A stretch of 64,000 nucleotides of DNA from positions 147,070 through 211,069 of the forward strand of contig DATJYC010000049.1 in the NCBI GenBank assembly GCA_035499735.1, read 5' to 3'. This document shows positions 26,967-53,629 of this stretch, in pieces; position 1 is the first letter of the stretch; each line of letters begins with the position of its first letter. Both the position numbers and the translations under genes were made by a program. The notes beneath the pieces were generated by a model. It did not search any database. It worked only from the letters and a program-made list of their open reading frames with translations, and was not told the origin of the DNA. Source of the DNA: Burkholderiales bacterium (GTDB lineage Bacteria > Pseudomonadota > Gammaproteobacteria > Burkholderiales > SG8-39).

Positions 26967-27971
26967 GTGGCGAGAATCGGGGTGATCGGCGGAGGCGCCT
27001 TCGGCACGGCGATGGCATGCGTGCTGCGGCGCGCCGGGCACGAGATCTCGATCTGGGCGCGCGAGCCCGAGGTCGTCGCCGCGATCAACCGCGAATCCCT
27101 GAATCCGGTGTTCCTGCGGGGAATACCGCTCCCGGCGGGAATCGCCGCGACCGTCGACCTGGGCGCAGCGACGGCCGGAACCGAATTCCTCGTCCTCGCG
27201 CCGCCGGCTCAGCACATGCGTAGCGTCGCGGGGCAGCTTGCGCCGTTCGTAAGGGAAGGACTGCCGCTCGTGTCCTGCTCCAAGGGCATCGAGCGCGGCA
27301 GCTGCGCGTTCATGTCGCAGGTCATCGCCGAGACTGTTCCCGGCGCGCGCGTCGCGGTGCTTTCCGGGCCCTCGTTCGCCCACGACATCGCCGCCGACCT
27401 GCCCGCGGGAGTGACTCTTGCGTGCCGGGATGGGGCGCTCGCCGTGCGGCTCGCCCGGGCGATCGGAACGCCGCGCTTTCGCGTCTACCTGTCGCACGAC
27501 GTGGTCGGGGTGCACCTGGGGGGAGTGATGAAGAACGTCCTCGCCATCGCCTGCGGCATCGCAACCGGAAGGAAGCTCGGCGAATCGGCGCGCGCCACGC
27601 TGTTCGCGCGCGGGCTCGCGGAGATGGCGCGGCTCGGCATCGCGCTCGGCGCGCGCCTCGAGACCTTCCTCGGCCTCTCCGGGGCGGGGGATCTTGCCCT
27701 GTCCTGCAACAGCGCGGCGTCGCGAAACACGTCGCTCGGCATCGCGCTCGGAGAGGGTAGGAAGCTCGATGACATCCTGCGCGAGCGGGTCACGGTCCAG
27801 GAAGGCGTGCACTCGGCCGAGTCCGTGGCCGAGCTCGCGAGACGGCAGGGCGTGCGCATGGCGATCAGCGGTGCCGTCGACGACGTGCTCAACCGCGGCT
27901 GCGCCGTCGAGGAGGCGATCGGCCGGCTGCTCGCGCGCCCTACCGGAGACGAGCTGGGCGGGGCGGCTTGA
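26967..27971 (+). CDS. gpsA: NAD(P)H-dependent glycerol-3-phosphate dehydrogenase
   Basis: [17 protein letters not shown] Rossmann N-terminus. GTG 26967 is preceded by a GGGGGAG SD. The track start is GTG 26952, so the start is uncertain. Confidence 0.88.
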
Positions 27972-27981
27972 TCTGCATCAA
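27968..27981 (+). promoter_or_regulatory. Perfect FNR-consensus palindrome TTGAT-CTGC-ATCAA upstream of the ABC transporter operon
   Basis: Read directly from the sequence. It overlaps the gpsA stop codon. A TATAAT hexamer lies at 28028-28033 and an AGGAGGA SD precedes ATG 28053. The box centre is about 53 nt upstream of the -10 hexamer, a class-I-like distance. Confidence 0.5.
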
Positions 27982-28052
27982 GAAGGGCGGCTCAGGGTCC
28001 GGCACGATGATGAGCGCAAGCTGACCCTATAATCGTCCCAGGAGGAGAAGCC

Positions 28053-29177
28053 ATGATCCGCGCATTGAAGCAGTTGGCCGTGGCCTTGACCGCGGCGCTT
28101 GCGCTCGCCGCGCAGGCCGCGGCCCAGCCCATCGAGAGCGAGCTCGTTCTCATCACCCCGGTCGCGAAGACCCTTACCGACCCTTCGCTCGCCGAGTTCG
28201 CCAAGTACGCCAAGGAGCGCTGGAACGTCACGGTCAAGACGAGCGCGCTCGCGGCCGGCACGCCGGTCGCCTACGGCCAGATCGTCGAATGGAAAGGCCG
28301 GCCCCAGGCCGACATCTTCTGGGGCGGCGAGAGCGCGCTCTTCGACAAGCTCGCAGACCAGAATCTCCTCGCCAAGCTCGATCTGTCCAAGGCGGTCGTC
28401 GACGCGGTCCCCGCGAGCATCGGCAAGCCCAAGCCCATACCGCTCAAGGACCCGCGGGGCTTCTGGATCGGAACGGTGCTCGAGCCCTACGGCCTGGTCT
28501 ACCATCCGCGGCTGCTCGCGCGCCTGGGCGTTCAGCCGCCCAAGGACTGGGACGACCTGCTCGATCCCAAGCTCAAGGGCAACGTCGCCCAGTGCGCGCC
28601 GACGCGCTCCTCCAGCAGCCACGCGACCTACGAGGTCATCCTGCAGCGCGACGGCGACGCCAAGGGCTGGGAGTTCCTGAAGCACCTGGGCGGCAACACG
28701 GGCATCTTCACAGCGCGCAGCCGTGACGTGCCCTCGGTCGTCGCCAAGGGCGAGTTCGCGGCGGGCTTCGCCGTGCCGAGCTACATGGCCTTCGAGGACC
28801 GTCTTTCGGGCTTCGACATCAAGTTCGTCGCGCCGAAGACCGCGTGGATCACGCCCGAACCGATCGCGGTAATCGCAGGTGCGCCACACCCCAAGGCGGC
28901 GCGCGCCTTCATCGAGTTCATGCTCGCCGAGCGCGGGCAGAAAGTCGCGATGGAACGGGGCGTGTTCCCGATCACGCCCAAGTACCGCGTTCAGGGCGCG
29001 CCGGGCTCGCCTGCGGAGATGGCGGTCGAGTTCACCGGGGGCCTGCGCTCCTACTTCGACGTCGAAGTAAACAATATCTATGACGACTCGATCGCGCAGA
29101 AGCGCTACGAGGAGGTCAACGCCCAGTACCGCAAGGATATCGAGTCGGTTGCCGAGGAGCTGAAGAAGAAATACTGA
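28053..29177 (+). CDS. ABC transporter periplasmic substrate-binding protein (family-1, Fe3+/2-aminoethylphosphonate-like)
   Basis: Signal peptide MIRALKQLAVALTAALALAAQAAA and SBP family-1-like sequence. It is the first gene of an SBP-ATPase-fused permease operon. Confidence 0.8.
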   Translation: MIRALKQLAVALTAALALAAQAAAQPIESELVLITPVAKTLTDPSLAEFAKYAKERWNVTVKTSALAAGTPVAYGQIVEWKGRPQADIFWGGESALFDKLADQNLLAKLDLSKAVVDAVPASIGKPKPIPLKDPRGFWIGTVLEPYGLVYHPRLLARLGVQPPKDWDDLLDPKLKGNVAQCAPTRSSSSHATYEVILQRDGDAKGWEFLKHLGGNTGIFTARSRDVPSVVAKGEFAAGFAVPSYMAFEDRLSGFDIKFVAPKTAWITPEPIAVIAGAPHPKAARAFIEFMLAERGQKVAMERGVFPITPKYRVQGAPGSPAEMAVEFTGGLRSYFDVEVNNIYDDSIAQKRYEEVNAQYRKDIESVAEELKKKY

Positions 29178-29181
29178 AGCT

Positions 29182-30249
29182 GTGCGGATCAGCGTCCACG
29201 AGATCACCAAGCGGTTCGGAAAAAACGAGGTCGTCGGGCGCTCGAGCTTCTCGATCGGGGAGGGGGAGCTGTTCACCCTCCTCGGTCCCTCGGGCTGCGG
29301 GAAAACGACGCTACTGCGGCTGATCGCGGGCTTCTACACCCCGGACGAGGGCGAGATACGCTTCGACGGCGTTCGCGTGAACGAGATGCCGCCGCACGAG
29401 CGCGGCATCGGCATGGTGTTCCAGAACTATGCGCTTTGGCCGCACATGACGGTGCACAGCAACGTCGCTTACGGCCTGAAGCTGCGCGAGGTCGGGCGCG
29501 CCGATATCCAGAGGCGGGTAGAGGGCGTTCTCGACAAGGTGCGGCTCGCCGGGCTGGGCGAGCGCTACCCCGGCCAGCTCTCCGGCGGCCAGCAGCAACG
29601 CGTGGCGCTCGCCCGGGCGCTCGTGCTCAACCCCAAGATCCTGCTGCTCGACGAGCCGCTGTCCAACCTCGACGCCAAGATCCGCGTGCAGGTGCGTGCG
29701 GAGATCAGGAAGCTCCAGAAAGAGCTCGGCATCACCACGGTCTACGTGACGCACGACCAGGAGGAGGCCCTCACGCTCTCGGATCGCATCGTGGTGTTCA
29801 ACCAGGGGCGGGTGTTCCAGATCGGCGCGCCGAAGGATCTCTACGAGCGGCCGAGAAACCGTTTCGTCGCGGACTTCATCGGCATCAACAATCTGCTCGA
29901 CGGAACGGTGCGCTCGGCCGAGACAGGATTTCTGGTCGTCGATACGGCGCTGGGGCCGATTCGCGCCATGCCGAATGCCGAGCTTCACGCGGGCAACAGA
30001 TGCGTGATCTGCGTGCGCCCGGAGAACATCGCCGTCGGCGGCGCAGGCGCCGAGCCCAACATCGCGCGGGGGAACATCGCCTTCGCCGCGTACCTGGGGA
30101 ACACGCTGCGCTACGACGTCGACCTCGGACAGGGGATCACTTTCAAGGTCGACGACCGCGATCCCTGGCAGCACGAGCAGCGCGCGATGGGCAGCGCGGT
30201 GGAGCTGGGCTTTTCGGTCGCGAGCACGCTGGCGATTCCGGCGGAATGA
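29182..30249 (+). CDS. ABC transporter ATP-binding protein (PotA/FbpC-like with C-terminal TOBE-like domain)
   Basis: Walker A GPSGCGKTT, signature LSGGQQQRVALARAL and Walker B LLLDEPLS. GTG start. Confidence 0.9.
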   Translation: MRISVHEITKRFGKNEVVGRSSFSIGEGELFTLLGPSGCGKTTLLRLIAGFYTPDEGEIRFDGVRVNEMPPHERGIGMVFQNYALWPHMTVHSNVAYGLKLREVGRADIQRRVEGVLDKVRLAGLGERYPGQLSGGQQQRVALARALVLNPKILLLDEPLSNLDAKIRVQVRAEIRKLQKELGITTVYVTHDQEEALTLSDRIVVFNQGRVFQIGAPKDLYERPRNRFVADFIGINNLLDGTVRSAETGFLVVDTALGPIRAMPNAELHAGNRCVICVRPENIAVGGAGAEPNIARGNIAFAAYLGNTLRYDVDLGQGITFKVDDRDPWQHEQRAMGSAVELGFSVASTLAIPAE

Positions 30250-31919
30250 AGCTGCCCCGCTCTCCGCTCGCGGCTCTCGGATTTACCCTGATCTGGATGT
30301 TCCTGATCGTTTTCGTCTTCTACCCGCTCACCCGGATCTTCTACGACGCCTTCACCGACGAGGCGGGGCGGGCGACGCTCGCGAACTTCCACGAGTTCTT
30401 CACCGATTCGTTCTATCTGCGGTCGCTGTGGAAATCGCTCGCGCTCGGGGCCGCCGCGGTGATCACGACCTCGGTCGTGGGGATCGCGGTGGCCTTCCTG
30501 ATCCTGCGCTACGAGTTTCCGTACAGGAACCTCTTCTCCTACCTCACCATGCTGCCGATGATCCTCCCGCCGCTGGTGGGCGTGCTCGGCTTCGTCTTCA
30601 TCCTCGGCCGCGCGGGAACGGTGAACGTGCTTCTCGAGGAATGGCTGGGCCTCGCGCACCCGGTGAATTTCATGTACGGAGTTCACGGCGTGCTGCTCGT
30701 CGAGACCGTGCACCTCTTCCCGATGATGACGCTCAGCATTCTCGATTCGCTCGCCAAGGTCGATCCTTCGCTCGAGGAGGCGGCGCAGGGCATGGGCGCC
30801 AGAGGGTGGCGCAGGTTCTGGGACGTGACGCTGCCGCTGACCACTCCGGGCTACGTGTCGGGGGCGCTGCTCGTCTTCATCTGGACCTTCGCCGATTTCA
30901 TCACACCGCTGGTCCTGGGGGTGCAGGACCTGCTCGCCCCGCAGGCCTACCTGAACATCGTGCAGTTCGTCGACCGGCGCATCTTCCGCATGGGAATCGT
31001 CATCTCGGCGCTGCTCGTCCTCCTCGCGATAGTCTTCGTTCTTGCGGCGCGCCAGTACGTCGCGATCAAGGACTACAGCTCGCTAGCCTATTCCAGGGTC
31101 GAGCGCCGGCGCCTGGGGCCCGTGGCCCGCTGGGCCGCTGTGGGCTTCCTGTCGACGCTCATGTTCGTATCGCTCGTGCCGCAGGCGGGCGTGCTGCTTG
31201 CGGCGGTGGGCCGCGGCTGGTCGCTCACCCCGTTCCCGCTTCACTACACGCTGGAGTTCTTCGACCAGGTGAGCGTGGAGACGCCGAAGTTCATCGTGAA
31301 CTCGCTCCTCTTCTGCGGCGTCGCCGTGTTCCTGTGCCTGGCGATCGGCGTGCCGATGGCGTGGATCATGGGGCGAACGAACGCCCCCGGGCGCGGCGCG
31401 ATGGACGCGCTCACCACGCTGATGCTCGCCATTCCGGGAACCGCGGTCGGCATCGCCTACGTGCGCGCCTTCAATTTCCCTCTGCCGGTCCTCGACGTCC
31501 CGCTTACCGGCATGTGGCTGATACTTCCGCTGGTCCTCGCCGTTCGCCGCCTGCCCTACACCGTGCGCGGAAGCTACTCGTCGCTGCTCCTGGTGCACAG
31601 ATCCATGGAGGAAGCGGCGGAGAACGTCGGCGCAACCAAGCTACGCACCTTCCGCGACATCACCGTGCCCCTCGTATGGAAGGGCATCTTCGTCGGCGGC
31701 CTGTTCTCCTTCATCACCTCGATCCAGGAGGCTTCCGCGACGATATTCCTCACCCTGGGCGGGCGCGAGATGATTCCCTACGGCATCTTCAGCTTCTACA
31801 TCGCCGGCTCGCAGAGCCAGGCCGCCGCGCTGGGTGTGATCCTGATCGCGGTGTGCGCGCTGAGCCTGTTTATAGTCAACCGCGTCGCTGGCGCGCGCGT
31901 CGGCGGACTCTTCGGCTGA
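30246..31919 (+). CDS. ABC transporter permease, fused two-domain type
   Basis: ATG 30246 overlaps the upstream TGA (ATGA). About 557 aa with about 12 TM segments, resembling FbpB/ThiP/PhnU2-type fused permeases. Confidence 0.85.
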   Translation: MKLPRSPLAALGFTLIWMFLIVFVFYPLTRIFYDAFTDEAGRATLANFHEFFTDSFYLRSLWKSLALGAAAVITTSVVGIAVAFLILRYEFPYRNLFSYLTMLPMILPPLVGVLGFVFILGRAGTVNVLLEEWLGLAHPVNFMYGVHGVLLVETVHLFPMMTLSILDSLAKVDPSLEEAAQGMGARGWRRFWDVTLPLTTPGYVSGALLVFIWTFADFITPLVLGVQDLLAPQAYLNIVQFVDRRIFRMGIVISALLVLLAIVFVLAARQYVAIKDYSSLAYSRVERRRLGPVARWAAVGFLSTLMFVSLVPQAGVLLAAVGRGWSLTPFPLHYTLEFFDQVSVETPKFIVNSLLFCGVAVFLCLAIGVPMAWIMGRTNAPGRGAMDALTTLMLAIPGTAVGIAYVRAFNFPLPVLDVPLTGMWLILPLVLAVRRLPYTVRGSYSSLLLVHRSMEEAAENVGATKLRTFRDITVPLVWKGIFVGGLFSFITSIQEASATIFLTLGGREMIPYGIFSFYIAGSQSQAAALGVILIAVCALSLFIVNRVAGARVGGLFG

Positions 31920-32699
31920 ATGAGGCCGCTCGCAGAGCTCGACTCTCGCGGCGTGAAGGCCGTGCTCGTGGACATCGACGAGACGCTGACCACCCGGGGC
32001 AGGCTCACCGCGGATGCCTACGCCGCGCTCGAGCGGCTGCACTCGCACGGCAGGATAGTCGTGCCCGTCACCGGACGCCCCGCGGGCTGGTGCGACCATA
32101 TCGCGCGCATGTGGCCGGTCGACGCCGTGGTGGGCGAGAACGGCGCGTTCTACTTCTTCTACTCCGACGGCAGGCTTCACAAGCGCTTTCTCGAAGACGG
32201 GGCGGCGCGTGCGCAGAAGCGCGCCCGCCTCGACGAGATCGCCAGGCGGATCCTCAGAGATATCCCAGGCAGCGCGCTTGCGGCCGATCAGGCGTACCGC
32301 GAGACCGATCTCGCGATCGACTACTGCGAGGACGTCCCCGCGCTGCCGCTCGGGGCGGCGGAGCGCATCGCGGCGCTGATGGAGGAGCGCGGGCTCAAGG
32401 CGAAGATCAGCTCGATCCACGTCAACGGCTGGTTCGGTAGCTACGACAAGCTCGCGACCAGCCGGCTCGCATTCGCCGAGCGCTTCGCCCTGGACCTCGA
32501 TGCCTCGAACCGGGAATGCGTGTTCGTGGGCGACTCCGAGAACGACGCGCCGATGTTCGGCTTCTTCCAGAATTCGGTAGGCGTCGCCAATGTCCGCCGC
32601 TTCGAGAGTCGACTCGCCGCCGCGCCGAAGTATGTGACGCGCGAGGCGGCTGGCGCCGGTTTCGTAGAGCTCGCCGAGCATCTGCTCGGCCGCGACTGA
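31920..32699 (+). CDS. HAD-IIB family hydrolase (sugar-phosphate phosphatase-like)
   Basis: The DxD motif VLVDIDETLT, VPVTGRP and the C-terminal GDSENDAPMF motif are present. The ATG directly abuts the permease stop. Confidence 0.8.
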   Translation: MRPLAELDSRGVKAVLVDIDETLTTRGRLTADAYAALERLHSHGRIVVPVTGRPAGWCDHIARMWPVDAVVGENGAFYFFYSDGRLHKRFLEDGAARAQKRARLDEIARRILRDIPGSALAADQAYRETDLAIDYCEDVPALPLGAAERIAALMEERGLKAKISSIHVNGWFGSYDKLATSRLAFAERFALDLDASNRECVFVGDSENDAPMFGFFQNSVGVANVRRFESRLAAAPKYVTREAAGAGFVELAEHLLGRD

Positions 32700-32716
32700 G
32701 ATGCCCTGTGGCCGAC

Positions 32717-33160: not shown

Positions 33161-33288
33161 TCGTCCTGCTCCGGCGAAATGATGCCCGGTTTCGCGCGAC
33201 TCTGCTGCGCTCTGCCGGGCGCTCCGTCGTGCTAACATTCGGCGCTTCGCCCCTCCAGGGCAGCGGTCTCGGTGGAGCCGTACCGAAG

Positions 33289-34290: not shown

Positions 34291-34292
34291 CG

Positions 34293-34919: not shown

Positions 34920-34936
34920 GGCGCGATGGCAGGCGC

Positions 34937-34950
34937 TTGACGCGGGTCAA
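34937..34950 (+). promoter_or_regulatory. Crp/Fnr-type palindrome TTGAC-GCGG-GTCAA upstream of sucC
   Basis: Perfect inverted repeat read from the sequence. A weak -10-like GATGAT at 34974-34979 lies about 30 nt from the box centre. Confidence 0.5.
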
Positions 34951-35005
34951 TGAGCGCCCGCACTGCTCGCGGCGATGATTGCGGCTACACTCCGGGACGC
35001 AGGCG

Positions 35006-36271
35006 ATGAAAATCCACGAATACCAGGCCAAGGAAATACTGCGGAAGTACGGCGTCGCCACGCCCCGCGGCGTCCCCTGCTTCTCGGTCGACGAGGCGGT
35101 GAGAGTCGCGCGCGAGCTGGGCGGCAAGGTGTGGGTGGTCAAGGCGCAGATCCACGCCGGCGGCCGCGGCAAGGGCGGCGGCGTGAAGGTCGTGAGAACC
35201 GAGGGAGAAGTGCGCGAATGGGCCGGCAGGATCCTCGGGATGATGCTGAAGACGCATCAGACCGGGCCCGAAGGGCAGAAGGTTCGCAGGCTCCTCGTGG
35301 AGGAGGGCGCAGACATCAGGAAGGAGCTCTACGTCGGCATGGTGGTCGACCGCAGCACGCAGCGGGTCGCGCTGATGGCTTCCAGCGAAGGCGGCATGGA
35401 CATCGAGGAAGTCGCCGCGCACGCGCCCGAGAAGATCCATACTGTGTTCGTCGACCCGGGCACGGGGCTGAAGGACTCGGAGGCCGACGGCCTCGCGAGG
35501 AAGATCGGCGTGCCGGACGCGAGCGTGCCGCAGGCGCGCGCGATCCTCAAGGGCCTGTACCGCGCATTCGACGAGACCGACTGCAGCCTCGCCGAGATCA
35601 ACCCGCTGATCCTCACCGGCGACGGCCGTGTGGTCGCGCTCGACGCGAAGATCAACTTCGACGACAACGCGGCTTTCCGCCACCCGGAATGGCGGCAGCT
35701 GCGCGACCTCGACGAGGAGGACCCGCAGGAAGTCGAGGCCTCGAAGTACGACCTCAACTACATCCAGCTCGACGGCGACATCGGCTGCCTCGTGAACGGC
35801 GCGGGCCTCGCCATGGCGACCATGGACATCATCAAGCTGTACGGCGGGTCGCCCGCCAACTTCCTCGACGTCGGCGGCGGCGCGACCACCGAGAAGGTCA
35901 CCGAGGCCTTCAAGATCATGCTGCGCATCCCGCACCTGAAGGCGATCCTCGTGAACATCTTCGGCGGCATCATGAAGTGCGACGTGATCGCCGCGGGCGT
36001 GGTCGCGGCGGCGAAACAGGTGAGCCTGCGCGTGCCGCTGGTCGTGCGCCTCGAAGGCACCAACGTCGACCTCGGCAAGAAGATCCTCGCGGAATCCGGC
36101 CTGCCGATCATCTCGGCGAGCAACATGGCCGACGCCGGGAAGAAGGTCGTCGCGGCGGCGGGAGGAAGACCGAAGGCCAAGTCGAAGCCGACGCCGAAGA
36201 AGAAGGCGAAGAGCAGGACGCCGAAGGGGAAACCGGCGAAGAAGGCAAAGAGGAAGAAAGGGAAGCGCTGA
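35006..36271 (+). CDS. sucC: Succinate--CoA ligase (ADP-forming) beta subunit with a lysine-rich C-terminal extension
   Basis: [42 protein letters not shown] and [10 protein letters not shown] motifs. There are an extra 36 C-terminal residues, [37 protein letters not shown] malate-thiokinase-type specificity cannot be excluded from sequence alone. Confidence 0.88.
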
Positions 36272-37149
36272 TGTCCATCCTCATCGGCAAGAACACCCGG
36301 GTGATGACGCAAGGCATCACCGGGAAGACCGGGATGTTCCATACCAAGATGGGCAAGGAATACGCGAATGGCCGAGCGTGCTACGTCGCGGGCGTCAATC
36401 CGAAGAAGCCGGGCGAGTCCTACGAGGGCATTCCCATCTTCGGCACCGTGAAGGAGGCGAAGCAGCACACCGGCGCGAACGTCTCGGTGATCTACGTGCC
36501 GCCGCCCTTCGCCGCTGCGGCGATCGACGAGGCGGTCGAGGCCGACCTCGACCTCGTGATCTGCATCACCGAGGGCATACCGGTGCGCGACATGATCCGC
36601 ACGAAATACAAGATGCAGGGCCGGCGCACCCGGCTCATCGGCCCGAACTGCCCGGGGATCATCACGCCGGACGAGATCAAGATCGGCATCATGCCCGGCC
36701 ACATCCACAAGAAGGGCCGCATCGGCGTGGTGTCGCGCTCGGGCACGCTCACGTACGAGGCGGTCGGCCAGCTGATGGAGCTGGGCCTGGGACAGTCCTC
36801 GTGCGTCGGCATCGGCGGCGACCCGGTGAACGGCATGAAGCACGTCGATGTGCTGAAGCTCTTCAACGACGATCCGGAAACGGACGCTGTCATCATGGTC
36901 GGCGAGATCGGCGGCTCGGACGAGGAAAACGCCGCGCGCTGGGTGAAGGCGAACATGAAGAAGCCGGTCGTCGGGTTCATCGCCGGCGTCACCGCGCCTC
37001 CGGGCAAGCGCATGGGGCACGCGGGCGCCATCATCTCTGGGGGCAAGGGCACCGCGCAGGAGAAGCTCGCGGTGATGGAGGAGTGCGGGATCAGGACCAC
37101 GAAGAATCCCGCGGAGATGGGGAAGCTGCTCAAGTCCGTCCTGAAGTAG
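36271..37149 (+). CDS. sucD: Succinate--CoA ligase alpha subunit
   Basis: [16 protein letters not shown] and the phosphohistidine loop GHAGAII. The ATG overlaps the sucC TGA by 1 nt. Confidence 0.92.
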
Positions 37150-37161
37150 CGCGCGCGGGAC

Positions 37162-39030: not shown

Positions 39031-39041
39031 CGGAGGTTCCG

Positions 39042-39405: not shown

Positions 39406-39419
39406 TTGATTCGAGTCAA
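39406..39419 (+). promoter_or_regulatory. Crp/Fnr-type box TTGAT-TCGA-GTCAA upstream of the formate dehydrogenase genes
   Basis: Read from the sequence. A TAGAAT -10 hexamer at 39443-39448 lies about 30 nt from the box centre, a class-II-like geometry. Confidence 0.6.
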
Positions 39420-39454
39420 GCTTTTGCGCGCGCGCTCGGACGTAGAATGGGCGC

Positions 39455-41149: not shown

Positions 41150-41165
41150 CGGCCGGAGGCGACAC

Positions 41166-43970
41166 ATGGACCGCATAAGCACCGCGCAGGCGGCGACGAT
41201 GCCCGTCGAGTTCAAGCTGAACGGCAGGAGCGTCGTCGGCCGGTCGGACGAAACCATCATCGAGACCGCCCAGCATTACGGAATCGACATCCCGCACCTC
41301 TGCTACAAGGAAGGGCTGCGGCCCGACGGCAACTGCCGCGCCTGCGTGGTCGAGATCAAGGGCGAGCGGGTGCTCGCGCCCTCGTGCTGCCGCACGCCCA
41401 AGGACGGCATGGAGGTCACCACCGACAGCCCGCGCGCCGTCGCGAGCCAGAAGATGGTGCTCGAGCTGCTGCTGTCCGACATCCCCGAAAAATCGTACAC
41501 GCTGAACTCCGAGCTCGACCGCTGGGCGAAAGATCTGAAGGTCGGCAAGCCCAGGTTCGAATCGCGCCACCAGCCGGAGGCGGATTGCTCGCACGCGGCG
41601 ATCGCGGTGAACCTGGACGCGTGCATACAGTGCACGCGCTGCCTGAGAGCCTGCCGCGAGGAGCAGGTCAACGACGTCATCGGCTACGCCTTCCGCGGCG
41701 AGCACTCGAAGATCGTCTTCGACCTCGACGACCCGATGGGGAATTCGACCTGCGTCGCCTGCGGCGAGTGCGTCCAGGCCTGCCCGACGGGCGCGCTGAT
41801 GCCGGCGCGCGAGGTCGGCAAGATCGTCGCCGACAAGACCGTGGATTCGGTCTGCCCCTACTGCGGCGTGGGCTGCCTGCTCACCTACAACGTCAAAGGC
41901 AACAAGATCCTCTGGGTGCAGGGCCGCGAGGGTCCCGCCAACAGCAACCGGCTGTGCGTGAAGGGGCGCTACGGCTTCGACTACGTGCAGCACAAGCACC
42001 GCCTCACCCGGCCGCTCATCCGCAAGCCGGGCGTGAAGAAGCACAAGGACTTCAGGGTCGATCCCGACAACTGGGCGGAAGTGTTCCGCCAGGCGAGCTG
42101 GGAAGAGGCGCTCGACTTCGCCGCGAAGGGGCTGCGAGACATCCGCGATACCCAGGGCAAGAAGGCGCTCGCCGGCTTCGGCTCGGCGAAGGGCACGAAC
42201 GAGGAGGCCTACCTCTTCCAGAAGCTCGTGCGCACGGGCTTCGGCTCGAACAACGTCGACCACTGCACGCGCCTGTGCCACGCCTCCTCGGTCGCGGCGC
42301 TCATGGAGGGCATCAACTCGGGCGCGGTATCGAACCAGGTGCGCGACGTGATGAAGGCGGAAGTGATCTTCCTGATCGGCGCCAACCCGACGGTGAACCA
42401 CCCGGTCGCCGCGACCTGGATGAAGAACGCCGCCAAATCCGGCGTGAAGCTCATCGTCGCCGACCCGCGCCGCGGCGAGCTCGCGCGCCATGCGACCTAT
42501 AACCTGCAGTTCAAGGCGGACACCGATGTCGCGCTGCTGAACGCGATGTTGCACACGATCGTCGAGGAAGGACTCGTGAACGAGGCCTTCATCCGCGACC
42601 GCACCTCGGGCTACGAGGCGCTCGCCGAGAACGTCAGGAAATTCACCCCGGAGGCGATGGCGCCGATCTGCGGCATCGACGCGCAGACGATCCGCGAAGT
42701 CGCGCGGCTCTATGCGACCTCCAAGGGCTCGATGATCATGTGGGGCATGGGCATCTCGCAGCACGTTCACGGCACCGACAACGCGAGGTGCCTCATCGCG
42801 CTGGCTCTTTCGACCGGCCAGATCGGCAAGCCGGGCTCGGGGCTGCATCCGCTTCGCGGACAGAACAACGTGCAGGGCGCCTCGGACTCGGGTCTGATCC
42901 CGATGTTCTATCCGGACTACCAGCGCGTGGCGACGCCCGAGGCGAAGGCGCGCTTCGAGAAGCTCTGGGGCACGGAGCTCGATCCCAAGCCCGGCCTCAC
43001 CGTGGTCGAGATCATGAACGCCGCGAAGAAGCGCGAGATCCGCGGCATGTACATCATGGGCGAGAACCCGGCGATGTCCGACCCCGACGTCGACCACGCG
43101 CGCGAGGCACTCGCGTCGCTCGATCACATGGTGGTGCAGGACATCTTCCTCACGGAAACGGCGTATCTCGCCGACGTGGTGCTGCCGGCGACCGCGTGGC
43201 CGGAGAAGGTCGGAACCGTCACCAACACCGATCGCATGGTGCAGCTCGGCCGTAAGGCGATCGAGCCGCCGGGCGAGGCGAAAGAGGACTTCTGGCTCCT
43301 CAACGAGCTTGCCAGGCGCATGGGCCTGCCGTGGAACTACACGCATCCGCGCGAGGTGTTCGACGAGATGCGCCAGTGCATGGACTCGATCGCCGGAATC
43401 ACCTGGGAGCGCCTCGAGCGCGACTCCTCGGTCACCTATCCTTGCGAGAAGGAAGGCGATCCGGGTGAGCCGGTCGTGTTCACTACGCATTTCCCGACGA
43501 CCACCGGCCGCGGCAAGTTCGTTCCCGCGGACCTGATCCCGGCGGCGGAGCGTCCGGACGAGCAGTATCCGATGGTCCTCATCACAGGCCGCCAGCTCGA
43601 GCACTGGCACACCGGCGCGATGACGCGCCGCGCCAGCGTGCTCGACCACATCGAGCCCGAACCGGTCGCCTCCTTCCATCCGCTCGACCTCGACCGCTTC
43701 GGCGCGAAGCCCGGCGACATCGTCACCGTCGAGTCGCGCCGCGGCAAGATCTCGCTCTACGCCCGCGCCGACGAGGGCACGCCTCAGGGTGCGCTGTTCA
43801 TCCCGTTCTGCTACTACGAGGCGGCGGCGAACATGCTCACCAACCCGGTGCTCGATCCCTTCGGAAAGATCCCCGAGTTCAAGTACTGTGCTGTCAGAGT
43901 AACGAGAGGCGGGCTCGAGCCGGTGCACGCGAGCTACGGCGGCGGCAAGGCGCTGGCCGAACTGCGGTAG
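41166..43970 (+). CDS. fdsA: NAD-dependent formate dehydrogenase alpha subunit (Mo/W-bis-MGD, Cys type)
   Basis: GGAGG SD 7 nt upstream. N-terminal 2Fe-2S and 4Fe-4S Cys clusters plus a molybdopterin oxidoreductase body. The active-site region VDHCTRLCHASS has Cys (TGC), not a TGA codon. Confidence 0.9.
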   Translation: MDRISTAQAATMPVEFKLNGRSVVGRSDETIIETAQHYGIDIPHLCYKEGLRPDGNCRACVVEIKGERVLAPSCCRTPKDGMEVTTDSPRAVASQKMVLELLLSDIPEKSYTLNSELDRWAKDLKVGKPRFESRHQPEADCSHAAIAVNLDACIQCTRCLRACREEQVNDVIGYAFRGEHSKIVFDLDDPMGNSTCVACGECVQACPTGALMPAREVGKIVADKTVDSVCPYCGVGCLLTYNVKGNKILWVQGREGPANSNRLCVKGRYGFDYVQHKHRLTRPLIRKPGVKKHKDFRVDPDNWAEVFRQASWEEALDFAAKGLRDIRDTQGKKALAGFGSAKGTNEEAYLFQKLVRTGFGSNNVDHCTRLCHASSVAALMEGINSGAVSNQVRDVMKAEVIFLIGANPTVNHPVAATWMKNAAKSGVKLIVADPRRGELARHATYNLQFKADTDVALLNAMLHTIVEEGLVNEAFIRDRTSGYEALAENVRKFTPEAMAPICGIDAQTIREVARLYATSKGSMIMWGMGISQHVHGTDNARCLIALALSTGQIGKPGSGLHPLRGQNNVQGASDSGLIPMFYPDYQRVATPEAKARFEKLWGTELDPKPGLTVVEIMNAAKKREIRGMYIMGENPAMSDPDVDHAREALASLDHMVVQDIFLTETAYLADVVLPATAWPEKVGTVTNTDRMVQLGRKAIEPPGEAKEDFWLLNELARRMGLPWNYTHPREVFDEMRQCMDSIAGITWERLERDSSVTYPCEKEGDPGEPVVFTTHFPTTTGRGKFVPADLIPAAERPDEQYPMVLITGRQLEHWHTGAMTRRASVLDHIEPEPVASFHPLDLDRFGAKPGDIVTVESRRGKISLYARADEGTPQGALFIPFCYYEAAANMLTNPVLDPFGKIPEFKYCAVRVTRGGLEPVHASYGGGKALAELR

Positions 43971-44019
43971 ACTCCCGTCGTAGGCCCGCGTCCGCCGGGT
44001 CGTGTCTGGGAGGACAAGC

Positions 44020-45078: not shown

Positions 45079-45085
45079 CCCGGCC

Positions 45086-47211: not shown

Positions 47212-47244
47212 GGCCCGAGCCCCGCGCCCTGCGCCGCAACCCTC

Positions 47245-47258
47245 TTGATTTCCGTCAA
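47245..47258 (+). promoter_or_regulatory. Crp/Fnr-type box TTGAT-TTCC-GTCAA upstream of fhs
   Basis: Read from the sequence. A TATAGT -10 hexamer at 47282-47287 lies about 30 nt from the box centre. An AGGAG SD precedes ATG 47335. Confidence 0.6.
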
Positions 47259-47334
47259 TGTCCGGCCAAATGCACACACCGTATAGTGCTCCTCCGCCAC
47301 GACCGATCGTTCCGGAAGCCCACAGGAGCCGTAG

Positions 47335-49005
47335 ATGCCCTCCGACATAGAAATCGCGCAGAAAGCCAAACTCGAACGCATCTCGAAGGTCGCGCTGTCG
47401 AAGCTCGGAATTCCCGAGGAGCATCTGGAGCCCTACGGGCACTACAAGGCGAAGGTCTCGCTCAAGTACCTCGACGGGCTGAAGGCGAAGCCCGACTCCA
47501 AGCTCGTGCTGGTCACGGCGATCAGCCCCACGCCTGCCGGCGAGGGCAAGACGACGACGACGGTGGGGCTGGGCGATGCGCTCAACCACATCGGCAAGAA
47601 GGCGATGATCTGCCTGCGCGAGCCTTCGCTCGGGCCCGTATTCGGCATGAAGGGCGGGGCCGCCGGCGGCGGCTACGCCCAGGTCGTCCCGATGGAAGAC
47701 ATCAACCTGCACTTCACGGGCGACTTCAACGCGATCGCGCTCGCGAACAACCTGCTTGCCGCGATGCTCGACAACCACATCCATCACGGCAACGAGCTCG
47801 GGATCGACGTGCGCCGCATCGCCTGGCGGCGCGTCGTGGACATGAACGATCGCGCGCTGCGCGACATCACGGTGAGCCTCGGCGGACCCGGCAACGGCTA
47901 CCCGCGCCAGGACGGATTCGACATCGTCGTCGCTTCCGAAGTCATGGCGATCTTCTGCCTGTCGACCTCGCTCGAAGACCTGAAGGAGCGCCTGGGCAAG
48001 ATCGTCGTCGGCTACACCCGCGACCTGAAGCCTGTTCTGGCGAAGGACCTCGGCGCCCACGGCGCCATGACGGTGCTGCTCAAGGACGCGATCCAGCCGA
48101 ACCTGGTGCAGACGCTCGAGAACAACCCCGCGTTCATCCACGGCGGCCCGTTCGCCAACATCGCGCACGGCTGCAATTCGGTGATCGCCACCAGGGCGGC
48201 GATGAAGCTCGTCGACTACGTGGTGACGGAAGCGGGCTTCGGTGCCGACCTGGGGGCGGAGAAGTTCATCGACATCAAGTGCCGCAAGTCCGGGCTGCGA
48301 CCGAGCGCCGCCGTTATCGTCGGCACGGTGCGTGCGCTGAAATACCACGGGGGCGTAGACCTGAAAGCGGTCAATCAGGAGAACATGGCCGCGCTCGAGC
48401 GGGGCATCGTGAACCTCGAGCGGCACGTCGAGAACGTGAGCAAGCACTATGGCATTCCTTGCGTGGTGTCCATCAACCGCTTCACCTTCGATACGCCACG
48501 CGAGCACGACTTCATCAAGGCGAGGATGGCCAAGCTCGGTGTCCCGGCGGTGATCGCCACGCACTGGGGCGACGGCGGCAAGGGCGCCGCCGAGCTCGCG
48601 AAGATCGTCGTCGGCCTGTGCGAGACGAAGAACAGCTTTCACTTCGTCTACGGCGAGAACGATTCCTTGTGGGAGAAGATCACAGCGATCGCCCAGCGCA
48701 TCTACCGGGCCTCGGAAGTCACCGCGGACGCCAAAGTGCGTGGCCAGATCAAGAAGCTCCAGGAAGACGGGTATGGGCATTATCCCGTGTGCGTCGCCAA
48801 GACCCAGTACTCCTTCTCGACGGATCCGCAGCTGCGCGGCGCCCCGGACAACCACGTGATCAACATCCGCGAGGTGCGCCTGGCGGCGGGCGCCGAGTTC
48901 ATCGTGATGATCTGCGGAGACGTCATGACCATGCCGGGGCTGCCCAAGGTGCCGTCGGCGGTCAAGATCGATCTGGTCGACGGAAAAGTGGTCGGCTTGT
49001 TCTGA
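47335..49005 (+). CDS. fhs: Formate--tetrahydrofolate ligase
   Basis: [14 protein letters not shown]-terminus, P-loop [14 protein letters not shown] and FTHFS sequence throughout. Confidence 0.93.
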
Positions 49006-49036
49006 TCGCGTAACTCCAGGTCCGGGAGACGAGTGA

Positions 49037-49771
49037 ATGCAAGAGCTGGTCACCTCGCAATTCTGGCTGGGGCTTCTGGCGATCATCTGGGTGAACGTCA
49101 TCCTGTCCGGGGACAACGCGGTCGTGATCGCGTTGGCTGCGCGGTCCCTGCCCGTGCATCAACAGAAGCGGGCGGTGTTCTGGGGCGCGGCCGCCGCGGT
49201 GGTTCTGCGGATCGTTCTGACCATCGTCGCGGTGGAGCTGCTCAAGCTTCCCTACCTCAAGCTCATCGGCGGGGCGCTCCTCTTCTGGATCGCGGTGAAG
49301 CTGCTCGTGCCGGAGGACAGCGAGGGGGACGACGTCGTCTCGAGCTCCCATCTGATCGGCGCTATCAAGACCATTCTGATCGCAGACCTGGTGATGAGCC
49401 TGGACAACGTCATCGCGGTCGCCGCGGTGGCCAAGGGCAGCATCGTGCTGCTCGTGCTCGGCTTGCTGATCAGCATCCCGATGGTGGTATACGGGGCGAC
49501 CATGCTGATGAAGCTGATGGACCGCTTCCCGGTGATCGTCACGGTTGGCGCCGCGCTCATCGGCTTCGTGGCAGGAGAGATGATCGTGACCGATCCGGTC
49601 GTGATCGAATGGTTCAAGGCGAACGCACGCTGGATGATCGATATCGAAGTGTTCCGCGCTTTCGGTTACAAGCTGGAGGTATCGGTGGCGGGCCTCATCG
49701 GCGCGGTGCTGGTGGTCCTCGCCGGAAAGTGGTTGGCGGGGGGCAGCAGACCGGAGGGGCAGGCGAGCTAG
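49037..49771 (+). CDS. TerC/YjbE family integral membrane protein
   Basis: LSGDNAVVIA and a second LSLDNVIAVAAV repeat, characteristic of the TerC family. Confidence 0.85.
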   Translation: MQELVTSQFWLGLLAIIWVNVILSGDNAVVIALAARSLPVHQQKRAVFWGAAAAVVLRIVLTIVAVELLKLPYLKLIGGALLFWIAVKLLVPEDSEGDDVVSSSHLIGAIKTILIADLVMSLDNVIAVAAVAKGSIVLLVLGLLISIPMVVYGATMLMKLMDRFPVIVTVGAALIGFVAGEMIVTDPVVIEWFKANARWMIDIEVFRAFGYKLEVSVAGLIGAVLVVLAGKWLAGGSRPEGQAS

Positions 49772-49849
49772 TCTGGATATAATGGCCGGGTGCGGAAACG
49801 CAGCCGGATGTCAGGAAGCAGCAGGCAGTTCCAACAAAGGAGGAGAGAC

Positions 49850-50863
49850 ATGCAGTTCTATATCGAGCGGGCTTCACGCTGGAACGCTTCATTGTTGGCT
49901 GTCCTTGCGGTGGCGGGTGCTCCGCAGGCGTCATGGGCGGCCTGGGAGCCGAACAAGACCGTGGAATTCATCGTGCCCGCGGGAACGGGCGGTGGAGCCG
50001 ACCAGATGGCGCGGTTCATCCAGGGCATCGTCGCCAAGCACAAGCTGATGAAGCAGCCGATGGTCGTCATCAACAAGGCGGGCGGCGCGGGCGCCGAGGG
50101 CTTCCTCGACGTCAAGGAGGCCAAGGGCGACGCGCACAAGCTGATCATCACGCTGTCGAACCTGTTCACCACGCCCCTGGCGACCCATACGCCGTTCAAC
50201 TGGCGCGATCTGACGCCGGTGCAAATGATGGCGCTCGACAATTTCGTCCTCTGGGTCAACGCCGAGACGCCTTACAAGACGCCGAAGGACTACATCGCGG
50301 CAGTGAAGGCCGCCGGCGGCAAGTTCAAGATGGGCGGCACGGGGTCCAAGCAGGAGGACCAGATCATCACCGTGGCCATAGAGCGGCAGACCGACGCCAA
50401 GTTCACCTACATCTCGTATCGGGGCGGCGGCGAGGTCGCGGTGCAGCTCGTCGGCAAGCACATCGATTCCACGGTCAACAACCCGATCGAGGCGGTGGCG
50501 CAGTGGCGGGCGGGCACTCTGCGCCCCCTGTGCGTGTTCGACTCCAAGCGCATGCCCTACAAGGCGAAGGTGACGAAGACCATGTCGTGGTACGACATCC
50601 CGACCTGCAAGGAGACGGGACTCGACGTCGAGTACGTCATGCTGCGCGGCATCTTCATGCCGGGAGGCGTGACCCCTGATCAGGTGCAGTACTACGTGGA
50701 TCTCCTGAAGAGAGTGCGCGAGACCCCGGAGTGGAAGGATTTCCTCGAGCAGGGCGCGTTCAACCAGACGACCCTGAACGGCAAGGACTACGAAGCGTGG
50801 GTGGCGCGCGAAGAAGCGCGGCACATCCTGCTCATGAAAGAGGCGGGGTTCCTCGCGCGATGA
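49850..50863 (+). CDS. tctC: Tripartite tricarboxylate transporter substrate-binding protein (Bug/TctC family)
   Basis: AAGGAGGAGA SD before ATG 49850, a signal peptide, and the motifs VEFIVPAGTGGGADQMAR and INKAGGAG. The track start at 49790 is an over-extension. Confidence 0.85.
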   Translation: MQFYIERASRWNASLLAVLAVAGAPQASWAAWEPNKTVEFIVPAGTGGGADQMARFIQGIVAKHKLMKQPMVVINKAGGAGAEGFLDVKEAKGDAHKLIITLSNLFTTPLATHTPFNWRDLTPVQMMALDNFVLWVNAETPYKTPKDYIAAVKAAGGKFKMGGTGSKQEDQIITVAIERQTDAKFTYISYRGGGEVAVQLVGKHIDSTVNNPIEAVAQWRAGTLRPLCVFDSKRMPYKAKVTKTMSWYDIPTCKETGLDVEYVMLRGIFMPGGVTPDQVQYYVDLLKRVRETPEWKDFLEQGAFNQTTLNGKDYEAWVAREEARHILLMKEAGFLAR

Positions 50864-50930
50864 GCTTGTCGCACGCGGGGTGATCCCCCGCGCGGCGCAG
50901 GGCCGGCGGGCGAATCGAAGAGGCGAGGGC

Positions 50931-51434
50931 GTGGAAAACGGAACGGATCGTTCTGCGGCGTCAACGCGGGCCGTGGAAATCGGCGTCGCGGCGATCATCC
51001 TGCTGTTCGGCCTGGTGGTGGTGATCGACAGCTACCGGCTGGGCGCAAGGTGGGGCGATGACGGGCCCCAGCCGGGCTATTTCCCCTTCTACGTCGGCCT
51101 GCTGATCTGCGCCTCGAGCGTCGCGATTCTGATGCGCGCCCTGCGCAATCCGGCGCTCGCGGAAGAGTCCTTCGTGTCGCGCGGGGAGCTGAAGAAGATC
51201 TTCACCGTGCTGGTGCCGACCATCGTCTACGTCGCGCTCATCGCCTGGCTCGGATTCTACGTTGCGTCGACCCTGTACATCGCGTATTTCATGTGGCGGC
51301 TCGGCAAGTACTCCTGGCTCAAGACCGTGCCGGTTTCGGTGGGCGTGAGCGTCGCCTTCTTCCTGATTTTCGAGATCTGGTTTTCGGTGCCGCTGCCGAA
51401 GGGGCCTCTGGAGTCGGCCCTGGGCCTGGGTTGA
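50931..51434 (+). CDS. tctB: Tripartite tricarboxylate transporter small membrane subunit (TctB family)
   Basis: Four predicted TM helices and a conserved position between tctC and tctA. The start is uncertain (GTG 50931 or the track start 50880). Confidence 0.7.
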   Translation: MENGTDRSAASTRAVEIGVAAIILLFGLVVVIDSYRLGARWGDDGPQPGYFPFYVGLLICASSVAILMRALRNPALAEESFVSRGELKKIFTVLVPTIVYVALIAWLGFYVASTLYIAYFMWRLGKYSWLKTVPVSVGVSVAFFLIFEIWFSVPLPKGPLESALGLG

Positions 51435-51439
51435 CCTGA

Positions 51440-52960
51440 GTGGAAGAGATCAACGCACTCCTGGGGGGATTCGGCGTCGCCTTCACCCCCTTCAACCTGA
51501 TGCTGATGTTCGTGGGCGTCATCCTCGGCATCATCATCGGCGTGCTTCCCGGGCTGGGCGGTGCGAACGGCGTCGCGATCCTCCTGCCCCTGACCTTCTC
51601 CATGTCGCAGCAGCCGGGCGGCACAACCTCGGCGATCATCCTGCTGTCGTGCATCTACTGGGGAGCGCTTTTCGGCGGCGCCATCACCTCGATCCTCTTC
51701 AATATACCGGGCGAGCCCTGGTCGGTCGCGACGACCTTCGACGGTCATCCGCTCGCGCAGCACGGGCGCGCGGGCAGCGCCCTGACTGCGGCATTCACCT
51801 CGTCGTTCGTCGGGGCGCTGATCGCCGTGATCATGATCACCTTCCTGTCGCCGGTCGTGGCGAGCTTCGCGCTGAAGTTCGGGCCGCCCGAGTTCTTCTC
51901 CGTCTACCTGCTGACGTTCTGCGCGTTCGTCGGAATGAGCGGCGGCAACGCCGCCAAGACCGTCGCCTCGATGATGATCGGCTTCGCTCTCGCCGCGGTC
52001 GGCCTGGACAGCGTCACCGGGACGCTTCGCCTCACGTTCGGCTTCACCTCGCTCCTCAAGGGGTTCGACTTCCTGATCGCGGTCATCGGCCTGTTCGGCA
52101 TCGGCGAGATCCTGGAGACGCTCGAGGAGGGCCTCGCTTTCAAGGGAGCGAGCGCGAGGATCAACGCGAAGGTGGTGCTCGAGACCTGGAAGGAGCTTCC
52201 GATGTACTGGGTGACCTCGCTGCGCAGCGCCGCGGTGGGCTGTTTCATGGGCATCGTGCCGGGCGGGGCGACCCCGGCGTCTTTCATGAGCTACGGCCTC
52301 GCCCGGCGCCTGTCCAAGGACGGCAAGGATTTCGGCAACGGCAAGGTCGAGGGGGTCGTCGCGCCGGAGACGGCCGCGCACGCCGCGGGCACCTCGGCGC
52401 TGCTGCCGATGATCACGCTCGGCGTGCCGGGTTCGCCCACCGCCGCGGTGCTCCTCGGAGGCCTGCTGATCTGGGGACTGCAGCCGGGCCCGCTGCTCTT
52501 CGTGGAGAAGCCGGATTTCGTGTGGGGCCTCATCGCCAGCATGTACCTGGGCAATATCGCCGGGCTGATCGTGGTCCTGACCTGCGTGCCGCTGTTCGCG
52601 GCCATCCTGCGCATCCCGTTCTCCATCATCGCGCCGGTGATCATCGTGATCTGCGCGATCGGCGCGTATACCGTGCACAACTCGATGTTCGACGTGTACC
52701 TGATGGTGATCTTCGGAGTGATGGGGTACGCATTCAAGAAGCTGGGGTACCCGCTCGCGCCCTTGGTGCTCGCCCTAGTGCTGGGCGACCGCGCGGAGGA
52801 GAACTTCCGCAACGCCATCAAGGGCTCGCAGGGCGATCTCCTGGTGTTCTTCTCGAACGGCCTGGTCGGCAGCCTGACCGCGCTGGCTCTGCTCCTGCTG
52901 TTCTGGCCCCTGTTGCGGGCGCTGTGGGCGCGCGTGTTGTCGGGGAGGCGCGGCGCCTAG
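51440..52960 (+). CDS. tctA: Tripartite tricarboxylate transporter large permease (TctA family)
   Basis: 506-aa polytopic protein with the GVLPGLGGANGVAILLPLTF motif typical of TctA. GTG start. Confidence 0.88.
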   Translation: MEEINALLGGFGVAFTPFNLMLMFVGVILGIIIGVLPGLGGANGVAILLPLTFSMSQQPGGTTSAIILLSCIYWGALFGGAITSILFNIPGEPWSVATTFDGHPLAQHGRAGSALTAAFTSSFVGALIAVIMITFLSPVVASFALKFGPPEFFSVYLLTFCAFVGMSGGNAAKTVASMMIGFALAAVGLDSVTGTLRLTFGFTSLLKGFDFLIAVIGLFGIGEILETLEEGLAFKGASARINAKVVLETWKELPMYWVTSLRSAAVGCFMGIVPGGATPASFMSYGLARRLSKDGKDFGNGKVEGVVAPETAAHAAGTSALLPMITLGVPGSPTAAVLLGGLLIWGLQPGPLLFVEKPDFVWGLIASMYLGNIAGLIVVLTCVPLFAAILRIPFSIIAPVIIVICAIGAYTVHNSMFDVYLMVIFGVMGYAFKKLGYPLAPLVLALVLGDRAEENFRNAIKGSQGDLLVFFSNGLVGSLTALALLLLFWPLLRALWARVLSGRRGA

Positions 52961-53601
52961 GCGACCCGCTGTCGCAGGCGCGACAGCGTCTCCGGCGTCA
53001 GATTGAGATAAGACGCAAGCTCCTTCTTGGGGATGCGTCCGAGCAGGTCGGTGTGCTTGCGCATGAAGCGCGCAAGCCGCCCGGGAGCGTCGAGGAGATG
53101 CAGCGTGATCGTGTGGGCCATGACCTCGGACATGAGGCGCATCACCTCGTATTCGAAGCGGAGCTTCACTTCAGTGTGGCGCTCGAGGAACTCGACCCAG
53201 TTGGGCATGGACAGGCGGGCGACCCGCACCTTGGTCACCGCAGCGATGCTGTAGGGCATGGGTGTCTTCATCCGCCATGCGGCATAGGAGGTGTCCATGT
53301 CGGTCTCGGCGGCGAAGCGCAGGATCATCTCCTTGCCCTGGGGATTGCTGACTACGCGCTTGAGGATGCCGTCCAGGATGAAGAATTGCTCCATGTTCGT
53401 TCCGCCCTGTCGGACCAGCGGCTCGCCCTTGCGGTACTCGGCGACCTCGAGCTGCGGCTCGAGGTCCTCCCAGGCAGGTACCGCCATTTCGCGCAGAATC
53501 AGGTTTTGTTTTAGCTGGAGGCGAATCGTGTTGCGCTGGGGGTGATTGAGGATGGCCGACACGGACGGCAGCGGGCGCGCGAACGAACGGTGGACCGGCA
53601 A
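52957..53601 (-). CDS. Crp/Fnr family transcriptional regulator (no Fe-S cysteine cluster)
   Basis: cNMP-binding-like beta-roll ([12 protein letters not shown]...FFILDGILK) and a C-terminal HTH with the FNR-type recognition motif ExxSR ([11 protein letters not shown]). There are no Cys residues. TTG start as in the track. Confidence 0.85.
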
Positions 53602-53615
53602 TTAAGCGGGATTTA

Positions 53616-53629
53616 TTGACTCCAGTCAA
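53616..53629. promoter_or_regulatory. Perfect Crp/Fnr-type palindrome TTGAC-TCCA-GTCAA between the divergent regulator gene and oxc
   Basis: Read from the sequence. A TACACT -10-like hexamer at 53652-53657 lies about 30 nt from the box centre. The box also sits about 15-28 nt upstream of the regulator start codon. Confidence 0.65.

Follow-up and report, generated by a model that had tools for sequence, protein, structure and literature searches.

Five 14-nt palindromes of one type precede genes for oxalate, formate and succinyl-CoA metabolism and for an importer in a 64 kb stretch of the genome of a Burkholderiales bacterium (contig DATJYC010000049.1; the whole stretch is referred to here as the window), which raises the question of which protein reads these sites and what it does once bound. 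An earlier note on this DNA had predicted from them a Crp/Fnr-type regulon that links sucCD, formate dehydrogenase, fhs, oxc-frc and an ATP-binding cassette (ABC) importer. We conclude, with a probability of about 0.78, that a Crp/Fnr-family regulator encoded nearby (52957-53562, minus strand) uses the five palindromes as its operators, an estimate that includes the proposal of class II activation at the target promoters. The regulon is supported by boxes that are non-random and conserved, by their linkage to the regulator gene and by a fixed spacing to the predicted −10 elements.

Both strands of the window were scanned exhaustively for TTGAYNNNNRTCAA (TTGAY-N4-RTCAA), which returned exactly five matches, at 27968, 34937, 39406, 47245 and 53616. 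These are the sites that had been picked out by eye in the intergenic regions, and extending the search to all coding sequence added no further exact match in the window. Using 100 dinucleotide-preserving shuffles as the null, 0.07 matches are expected per window, in line with the previous rough estimate of far fewer than one chance match in 64 kb, and none of the 100 shuffles reached five. Relaxing the pattern yielded just 6 sites with one mismatch and 45 with two in addition to the 5 exact ones, and the exact matches are therefore strongly over-represented. With a position weight matrix (PWM) derived from orthologous sites, the five boxes score 14.6-27.8 bits and the runner-up, which lies within the fhs coding sequence, 8.4 bits; none of the one-mismatch sites (21622, and others in coding regions) scores above 8.4 bits, and they were set aside. 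The consensus of the orthologous sites is TTGA(C>T)-N4-(G>A)TCAA, with C/G favoured at positions 5 and 10 (83%) and with conserved flanks. All five boxes are non-coding, and each lies upstream of genes on the plus strand. The boxes, the predicted promoter elements and the genes between and around them are as follows.

26952-27971, plus: gpsA, whose TGA stop codon is overlapped by box 1
27968-27981: box 1, TTGATCTGCATCAA, upstream of the ABC operon; the weakest member, 14.6 bits
28053-29177, 29182-30249 and about 30260-31919, plus: ABC substrate-binding protein, ATPase and permease
31920-32699, plus: HAD-IIB hydrolase, last gene of the probable target operon 28053-32699
up to 34919, plus: Pit-type transporter and DUF47 protein, 3′ of the HAD-IIB hydrolase
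34937-34950: box 2, TTGACGCGGGTCAA, upstream of sucC
34974-34979, plus: predicted sucC −10, GATGAT, 23 nt after box 2; the same hexamer occurs in the related loci L081 and L082
35006-36271 and 36271-37149, plus: sucC and sucD (582 and 472 bits, above the cutoffs); putative target operon 35006-37149
37162-39030, plus: TPR protein, between sucD and box 3
39406-39419: box 3, TTGATTCGAGTCAA, upstream of fdsGB
39443-39448, plus: predicted fds −10, TAGAAT, 23 nt after box 3
39455-41149, plus: NuoE/NuoF-like fusion (FdsG/B-like) of an NAD-type formate dehydrogenase; putative target operon 39455-43970
41166-43970, plus: formate dehydrogenase alpha subunit (Fdh-alpha; TIGR01591, 760 bits, above the cutoff), with three unrelated genes between it and box 4
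47245-47258: box 4, TTGATTTCCGTCAA, upstream of fhs
47282-47287, plus: predicted fhs −10, TATAGT, 23 nt after box 4; TATAGT is conserved in orthologous promoters
47335-49005 and 49037-49771, plus: fhs and a yjbE/TerC-family gene, the start of the putative target operon 47335-52960
49851-50863, 50880-51434 and 51440-52960, plus: tctC, tctB and tctA, in the same operon as fhs and without a box of their own
52957-53562, minus: Crp/Fnr-family regulator, 201 aa, start codon GTG at 53562
53601-53606, minus: candidate regulator −10, CTTAAT, 9 nt after box 5, with the box centre near −28.5
53616-53629: box 5, TTGACTCCAGTCAA, in the divergent spacer between the regulator gene and oxc; top score, 27.8 bits
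53652-53657, plus: predicted oxc −10, TACACT, 22 nt after box 5
53718-55478, plus: oxc (982 bits, above the cutoff); putative target operon 53718-57702
55495-56766, plus: frc (573 bits, above the cutoff)
56770-57702, plus: fmt-like formyltransferase gene (fmtL), third gene of the oxc operon; genes for a Ser/Thr kinase, a PP2C phosphatase and an FHA protein lie 3′ of it

The gene identities previously assigned to sucCD, formate dehydrogenase, fhs, oxc, frc and the ABC importer hold.

Conservation of the boxes and promoter geometry

Scanning one genome per GTDB species yielded 80 loci with orthologues of the regulator (62-96% identity), onto which the proteins of the window were mapped and in whose 1.18 Mb every exact box was listed. 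An exact box lies in the divergent spacer between the regulator gene and oxc, or between the regulator gene and frc, in 79/79 loci that have DNA upstream of the regulator. Among the 160 exact boxes found altogether, only 1 is located within a mapped gene, and 4 could not be assigned, one of these being the L013 box near a reductase gene described below. The box upstream of fhs is present in 36 of 41 orthologous loci, the exceptions mostly having fhs directly behind fdsA, and tctC is preceded by an exact box in 31 of 53 loci and by one with a single mismatch in 4 more. The carriers are nearly all uncultured Burkholderiales from soil, groundwater and lakes, and the candidate regulator turns up very often in soil metagenomes. 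Cultured examples are Hylemonella gracilis (with an orthologue in strain ATCC 19624) and Pseudoduganella sp. UC29_106, and complete genomes with the regulator include NZ_CP171977.1 and OZ257137.1.

For the remaining promoters, a metagenome scan with SucC was used, in which the matches listed are mostly distant sucC loci and about ten are close enough to be informative. L081 (SucC 93% identical) has an identical sucC box as well as the fdsGB box, and in L082 (SucC 89% identical) boxes precede the gene for the ABC substrate-binding protein, sucC and fdsGB. Among the matches listed, the exact sucC box occurs in L081, L082, L083, L084, L086 and L089, and the fdsGB box is conserved in L013, L081, L082 and L091. 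About 70 more distant sucC loci among these matches (SucC identity of 75% or less) served as negative controls and have no box at sucC. Many of the distant loci (L092-L160, e.g., L096, L112, L120 and L122) show the gene order sucCD-yjbE-Ser/Thr kinase-PP2C. In the window (35006-62130), sucCD and yjbE are separated by fds and fhs, and yjbE and the kinase gene by tctCBA, the regulator gene and oxc-frc-fmtL. This arrangement points to an insertion of the formate and oxalate genes into an older sucCD-yjbE-kinase-PP2C neighbourhood in the lineage of the window.

Promoters were aligned on the box and oriented to the gene, and a hexamer was counted as −10-like if it matched TATAAT in at least four of six positions, including A2 and T6. 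Such a hexamer starts 22-23 nt after the box in all 63 unique oxc promoters (63/63), in 36/37 fhs promoters and in 15/17 frc promoters; for tctC the distance is 21-23 nt in 24 of 31 cases. No other offset is enriched in the box-aligned oxc, frc, fhs and tctC promoters, and they have no −35 hexamer. If the hexamer is placed at −12 to −7, that is, taking these predicted −10 elements as reference, the box centre in the window falls at −42.5 for sucC (GATGAT, 34974), fds (TAGAAT, 39443) and fhs (TATAGT, 47282), and at −41.5 for oxc (TACACT, 53652), with the hexamer starting 30.5 nt from the box centre at the former three and 29.5 nt at oxc. Transcription is accordingly predicted to start at about 34986 (sucC), 39455 (fds), 47294 (fhs) and 53664 (oxc). 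As judged from these predicted elements, boxes 2-5 have the class II arrangement of Fnr- or Crp-activated promoters. The same distances and geometry had been read earlier from the window for its last four boxes, and the spacing of 22-23 nt is seen here to be kept in relatives, with regulator sequences up to 38% divergent. With the box taking the place of the −35 element at a fixed spacing, the regulator would most likely be a class II activator. The half-site TTGAC was also considered as the −35 element of the target promoters and rejected, because its spacing to the −10 would be 30 nt.

Box 5 looks different when viewed in the direction of the regulator gene. Here, AT-rich −10-like hexamers follow at a distance of 5-12 nt (CTTAAT in the window; TAAAAT, TAGAAT and TACAAT in relatives), and since there is no −10 at 22-23 nt from the box, a class II promoter for the regulator was rejected. 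At this distance the box would be at about −24 to −29 of the regulator promoter, flanked by its −35 and −10 positions, and binding of a dimer there should be repressive. The regulator thus probably represses its own synthesis via the same box from which it would activate oxc.

A separate observation concerns the start of the fds transcript. The ATG at 39455 lies only 6 nt after the −10, and the same architecture is found in L081 (4738, plus), L082 (12135, plus) and L013 (20489, minus). The −10 in the window and these relatives is TAGAAT or TAAAAT, and the ATG of the FdsG/B-like protein is conserved, the relatives differing by an in-frame indel downstream of it. With so short a distance, the transcript for formate dehydrogenase probably lacks a leader. 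The start of sucC in L086 and L089 is similarly close, 7-9 nt after the −10.

The regulator and competing explanations

The regulator has an N-terminal cyclic nucleotide monophosphate (cNMP)-binding-like beta-roll domain (PF00027, 38.8 bits versus a cutoff of 27.5), and its alignment to the structures 3DN7 and DNR extends through the predicted C-terminal helix-turn-helix (HTH) domain. The C-terminal helix reads P-E-T-L-S-R, and ETLSR is invariant in 81/81 orthologues, in agreement with the FNR-type ExxSR motif recognised earlier. The window regulator contains no cysteine at all, as do 48 of the 81 orthologues, and a conserved cysteine column is absent from all 81. This excludes an Fe-S FNR, and the test under low oxygen that the earlier note had suggested does not follow from the nature of this protein. 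The cAMP contacts E72, R82 and S83 of E. coli CRP are unmatched in the HMMER alignment of the regulator, the CRP equivalog model NF008732 scores it at 27.9 bits versus a cutoff of 266, and none of the NCBIfam Fnr models detects it. The closest solved structure is 3DN7, an uncharacterised structural-genomics protein (E = 8e-10), and the CRP and DNR structures match only at about 1e-5 (DNR 3DKW, E = 2e-5). An AlphaFold2 model built with 30 close homologues had a mean predicted local distance difference test (pLDDT) score of 55.9, and of less than 50 in the beta-roll, which is too poor for a comparison of pocket or fold. Judged by its sequence, the protein is a Crp/Fnr-family regulator with an Fnr-type DNA-reading helix that is neither an Fe-S FNR nor a cAMP-CRP.

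Its open reading frame had previously been drawn from 52957 to 53601. The frame and the assignment to the Crp/Fnr family stand, and the start has to be moved: homologues that begin with ATG start with MSAI(I/L)NHPQ, their ATG aligning to the GTG at 53562, such that this GTG is the start of the window gene and the TTG at 53601 is ruled out.

With FNR of E. coli and Anr of Pseudomonas, the system shares the E-x-x-S-R helix, the TTGA(T/C)-N4-(A/G)TCAA palindrome and, by prediction, the class II site at −41.5 and a site over the regulator's own promoter. However, FNR and Anr are Fe-S oxygen sensors that control anaerobic respiration, whereas the regulator described here lacks the N-terminal cysteine cluster and any conserved cysteine, which speaks against oxygen sensing by a [4Fe-4S] cluster, and its putative targets serve oxalate and formate catabolism and its putative sites favour C/G at positions 5 and 10. 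Regulators of the FixK/Dnr/NnrR type also lack the cysteine cluster, read TTGA-N6-TCAA with E-x-x-S-R and activate from about −41.5, but their similarity is distant (see DNR 3DKW above), they have other target genes, and no haem, nitric oxide or FixLJ context is visible at this locus. CRP/CAP has the same two-domain architecture and provides the class I/II activation paradigm, yet it differs by the low equivalog score, the non-conserved cAMP contacts and its motif, TGTGA-N6-TCACA.

CprK of Desulfitobacterium is a pathway-specific Crp/Fnr activator with a small-molecule effector that reads TTAAT-N4-ATTAA. By description, to which the comparison is confined, it resembles our candidate as a local activator next to a catabolic operon with a 5-N4-5 palindrome at −41.5, and it differs in box, effector and pathway. 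Regulators are also known for parts of the gene set considered here, since the LysR-type FdsR controls fds in Cupriavidus necator and EvgA controls yfdXWUVE (oxc/frc) in E. coli. These regulate formate dehydrogenase and oxc/frc, respectively, but they belong to unrelated families with unrelated operators, and neither joins oxalate, formate, fhs and sucCD in one regulon.

Could the boxes be read by another protein? A global oxygen-responsive regulator of the Fnr/Anr type, encoded outside the window, might induce the formate and oxalate genes at low oxygen, with the adjacent cysteine-free protein binding elsewhere or competing for the sites. TTGA-N6-TCAA is indeed the generic core of Fnr/Anr/FixK boxes, and box 1 (TTGAT-N4-ATCAA) is a classical FNR consensus. 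The consensus of P. aeruginosa Anr is given as TTGac-N4-gtCAA (PMC4974557), and the same sequence might be read by an Fe-S Anr/Fnr paralogue encoded outside the window, with possible cross-talk. Nevertheless, we consider this explanation unlikely, because the box adjoins this particular regulator gene in every one of the 79 loci, the boxes in those loci are almost wholly confined to oxalate and formate genes, the invariant helix of the adjacent protein matches them, the sites strongly favour C/G at positions 5 and 10 and have conserved flanks, and no gene typical of anaerobic respiration carries a box in the window. The linkage and the pathway restriction together argue that the local regulator is the primary reader. 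If so, it might still act in the opposite direction, as a repressor that occludes the −35 region until an inducer releases it. At every target promoter the box overlaps the −35 position, and at the promoter of the regulator gene, which is likely to be repressed, it overlaps the core. At the target promoters, though, repression seems more improbable still than a global reader, since they lack a recognisable −35 and their −10 hexamers are mostly weak (e.g., GATGAT, TACACT, TAGACT), as is typical of activator-dependent promoters, and since a rigid spacing of 22-23 nt is demanded by class II activation and not by simple occlusion. That the palindromes are chance or non-regulatory sequence, for instance remnants of a repeat element, we regard as next to negligible: only their small number speaks for it, while the shuffles do not reproduce that number, the flanks of the five window boxes are mutually unrelated, and the sites are kept at orthologous promoters although the intergenic DNA around them diverges in relatives.

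Besides the paralogue that could share the consensus, several points weigh against the assignment of all five boxes to the adjacent regulator. The figure of 79/79 comes from loci that were collected by searching for the regulator, without matched regulator-free oxc genomes as a control. The predicted HTH domain of the regulator scores 20.1 bits with HTH_Crp_2 (PF13545), under the Pfam cutoff of 27. At box 1, the hexamer GATGAT lies 24 nt downstream, which would put the box at −43.5, an off-optimal spacing, and orthologous support comes from L082 only, where an exact box is followed after 22 nt by a weak CAGCAT. Both half-sites of box 1 are of the rarer T/A type, and a consensus TATAAT further downstream, at 28028, would place it at −65.5. 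For the ABC importer, the earlier proposal of membership in the regulon is thus backed by an exact box and by the L082 orthologue and weakened by the lowest score and the 24-nt spacing. It is the least secure of the five, and we regard the ABC operon as a probable member.

The putative oxalate and formate regulon

On the reading that the adjacent regulator is the reader and activates, a regulator dimer would bind TTGAC-N4-GTCAA via its E-x-x-S-R recognition helix. At the promoters of oxc-frc-fmtL, fhs(-yjbE-tctCBA), fdsGBA, sucCD and probably the ABC operon, the box would lie about 41.5-42.5 bp upstream of the start and replace the −35 element, such that the regulator, most likely as a class II activator, would recruit RNA polymerase. 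The products of frc and oxc would activate and decarboxylate oxalate, and the resulting formate would be disposed of by NAD-linked oxidation (fds) and by entry into the folate one-carbon (C1) pool (fhs), with tctCBA as the tripartite carboxylate transporter of the regulon. Succinyl-CoA synthetase (sucCD) would supply the CoA-thioester donor that primes or replenishes the Frc/Oxc cycle. Its presence in the regulon would make sense because Frc can reportedly use the succinate/succinyl-CoA pair, and because oxalyl-CoA drained to glyoxylate for assimilation would cost a thioester that needs replacement. Since the regulator has neither a redox-sensing cluster nor a cAMP site, its cNMP-like domain probably binds a metabolite of the pathway as effector, be it oxalate, oxalyl-CoA, formyl-CoA or formate.

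The regulator subfamily is uncharacterised and its oxalate/formate regulon is newly defined, while the mechanism proposed for it is a conventional, Fnr-like class II one. In the searchable full-text literature, which does not extend to subscription journals, we found no transcription factor for oxc/frc-based oxalotrophy in Proteobacteria besides the acid-response control in E. coli. Soil bacteria that turn over oxalate contribute to the oxalate-carbonate pathway and to interactions between plants and microbes, and the comparative data now yield a candidate regulator, an operator and a regulon that would tie together oxalate decarboxylation, formate oxidation, folate C1 entry, a TTT transporter and succinyl-CoA synthetase. 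The regulation of oxalotrophy thereby becomes directly testable in the cultured carriers, with a candidate oxalate-responsive promoter/regulator pair at hand. A more tentative idea, to which we give somewhat less than even odds, is that oxalotrophy in soil and freshwater Burkholderiales has its master activator in the cysteine-free subfamily, whose cNMP-like domain would directly sense oxalate, oxalyl-CoA or formyl-CoA. If true, this would be an effector class undescribed for the Crp/Fnr family, and it would provide a ready-made oxalate-responsive genetic switch.

In relatives, tctCBA also appears to belong to the regulon under a box of its own, as does a PanE-like reductase gene at one locus. 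The tctC box is missing from the window through a deletion: an alignment with L010, L002 and L003 (window 49740-49860) shows that about 55-60 nt are gone between the stop codon of yjbE and the −10 region, which leaves a consensus TATAAT (49778-49783) directly after yjbE. The real tctC start is the ATG at 49851, preceded by AAGGAGG. For tctCBA in the window, transcription probably continues from the fhs promoter or is constitutive.

In L013 (10663-13181), genes for a PanE/ApbA-family reductase and a major facilitator superfamily transporter stand where tctCBA would be, with a box (11778) upstream of the reductase gene. In Methylobacterium extorquens, PanE2 serves as the oxalyl-CoA reductase, which would make the L013 protein a candidate oxalyl-CoA reductase; its boxed gene fits an oxalate-assimilation regulon. 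Paired boxes 40-54 nt apart occur in L068 (19453/19507), L070 (18886/18931) and L055 (15712/15752), between a second frc paralogue and a Zn-dehydrogenase gene or upstream of fhs. They may represent divergent promoters or tandem sites.

Further observations in the window

The gene order oxc-frc-fmt-like is kept in most loci. The fmt-like formyltransferase (310 aa) scores below the Fmt equivalog cutoffs, and its gene lies directly 3′ of frc in almost all 80 loci.

The 5′ leaders of oxc (53661-53717 in the window, and its orthologues) contain GC-rich hairpins such as GACCGCG...CGCGGTC (window) or GACCGCA...TGCGGTC (L002). The oxc leaders are not alignable across the wider locus set and have no Rfam match. 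An Rfam search of the promoters and leaders found no known RNA element, and the sole match in the window is a bacterial class A RNase P RNA gene at 6571-6862 (230.9 bits).

A 385-aa protein encoded at 16935-18092 has two cNMP-binding domains, and a DNA-binding domain was not detected in it. The remainder of the window is ordinary chromosomal housekeeping DNA, including, besides the RNase P RNA gene, genes for YhdP and a heptosyltransferase.

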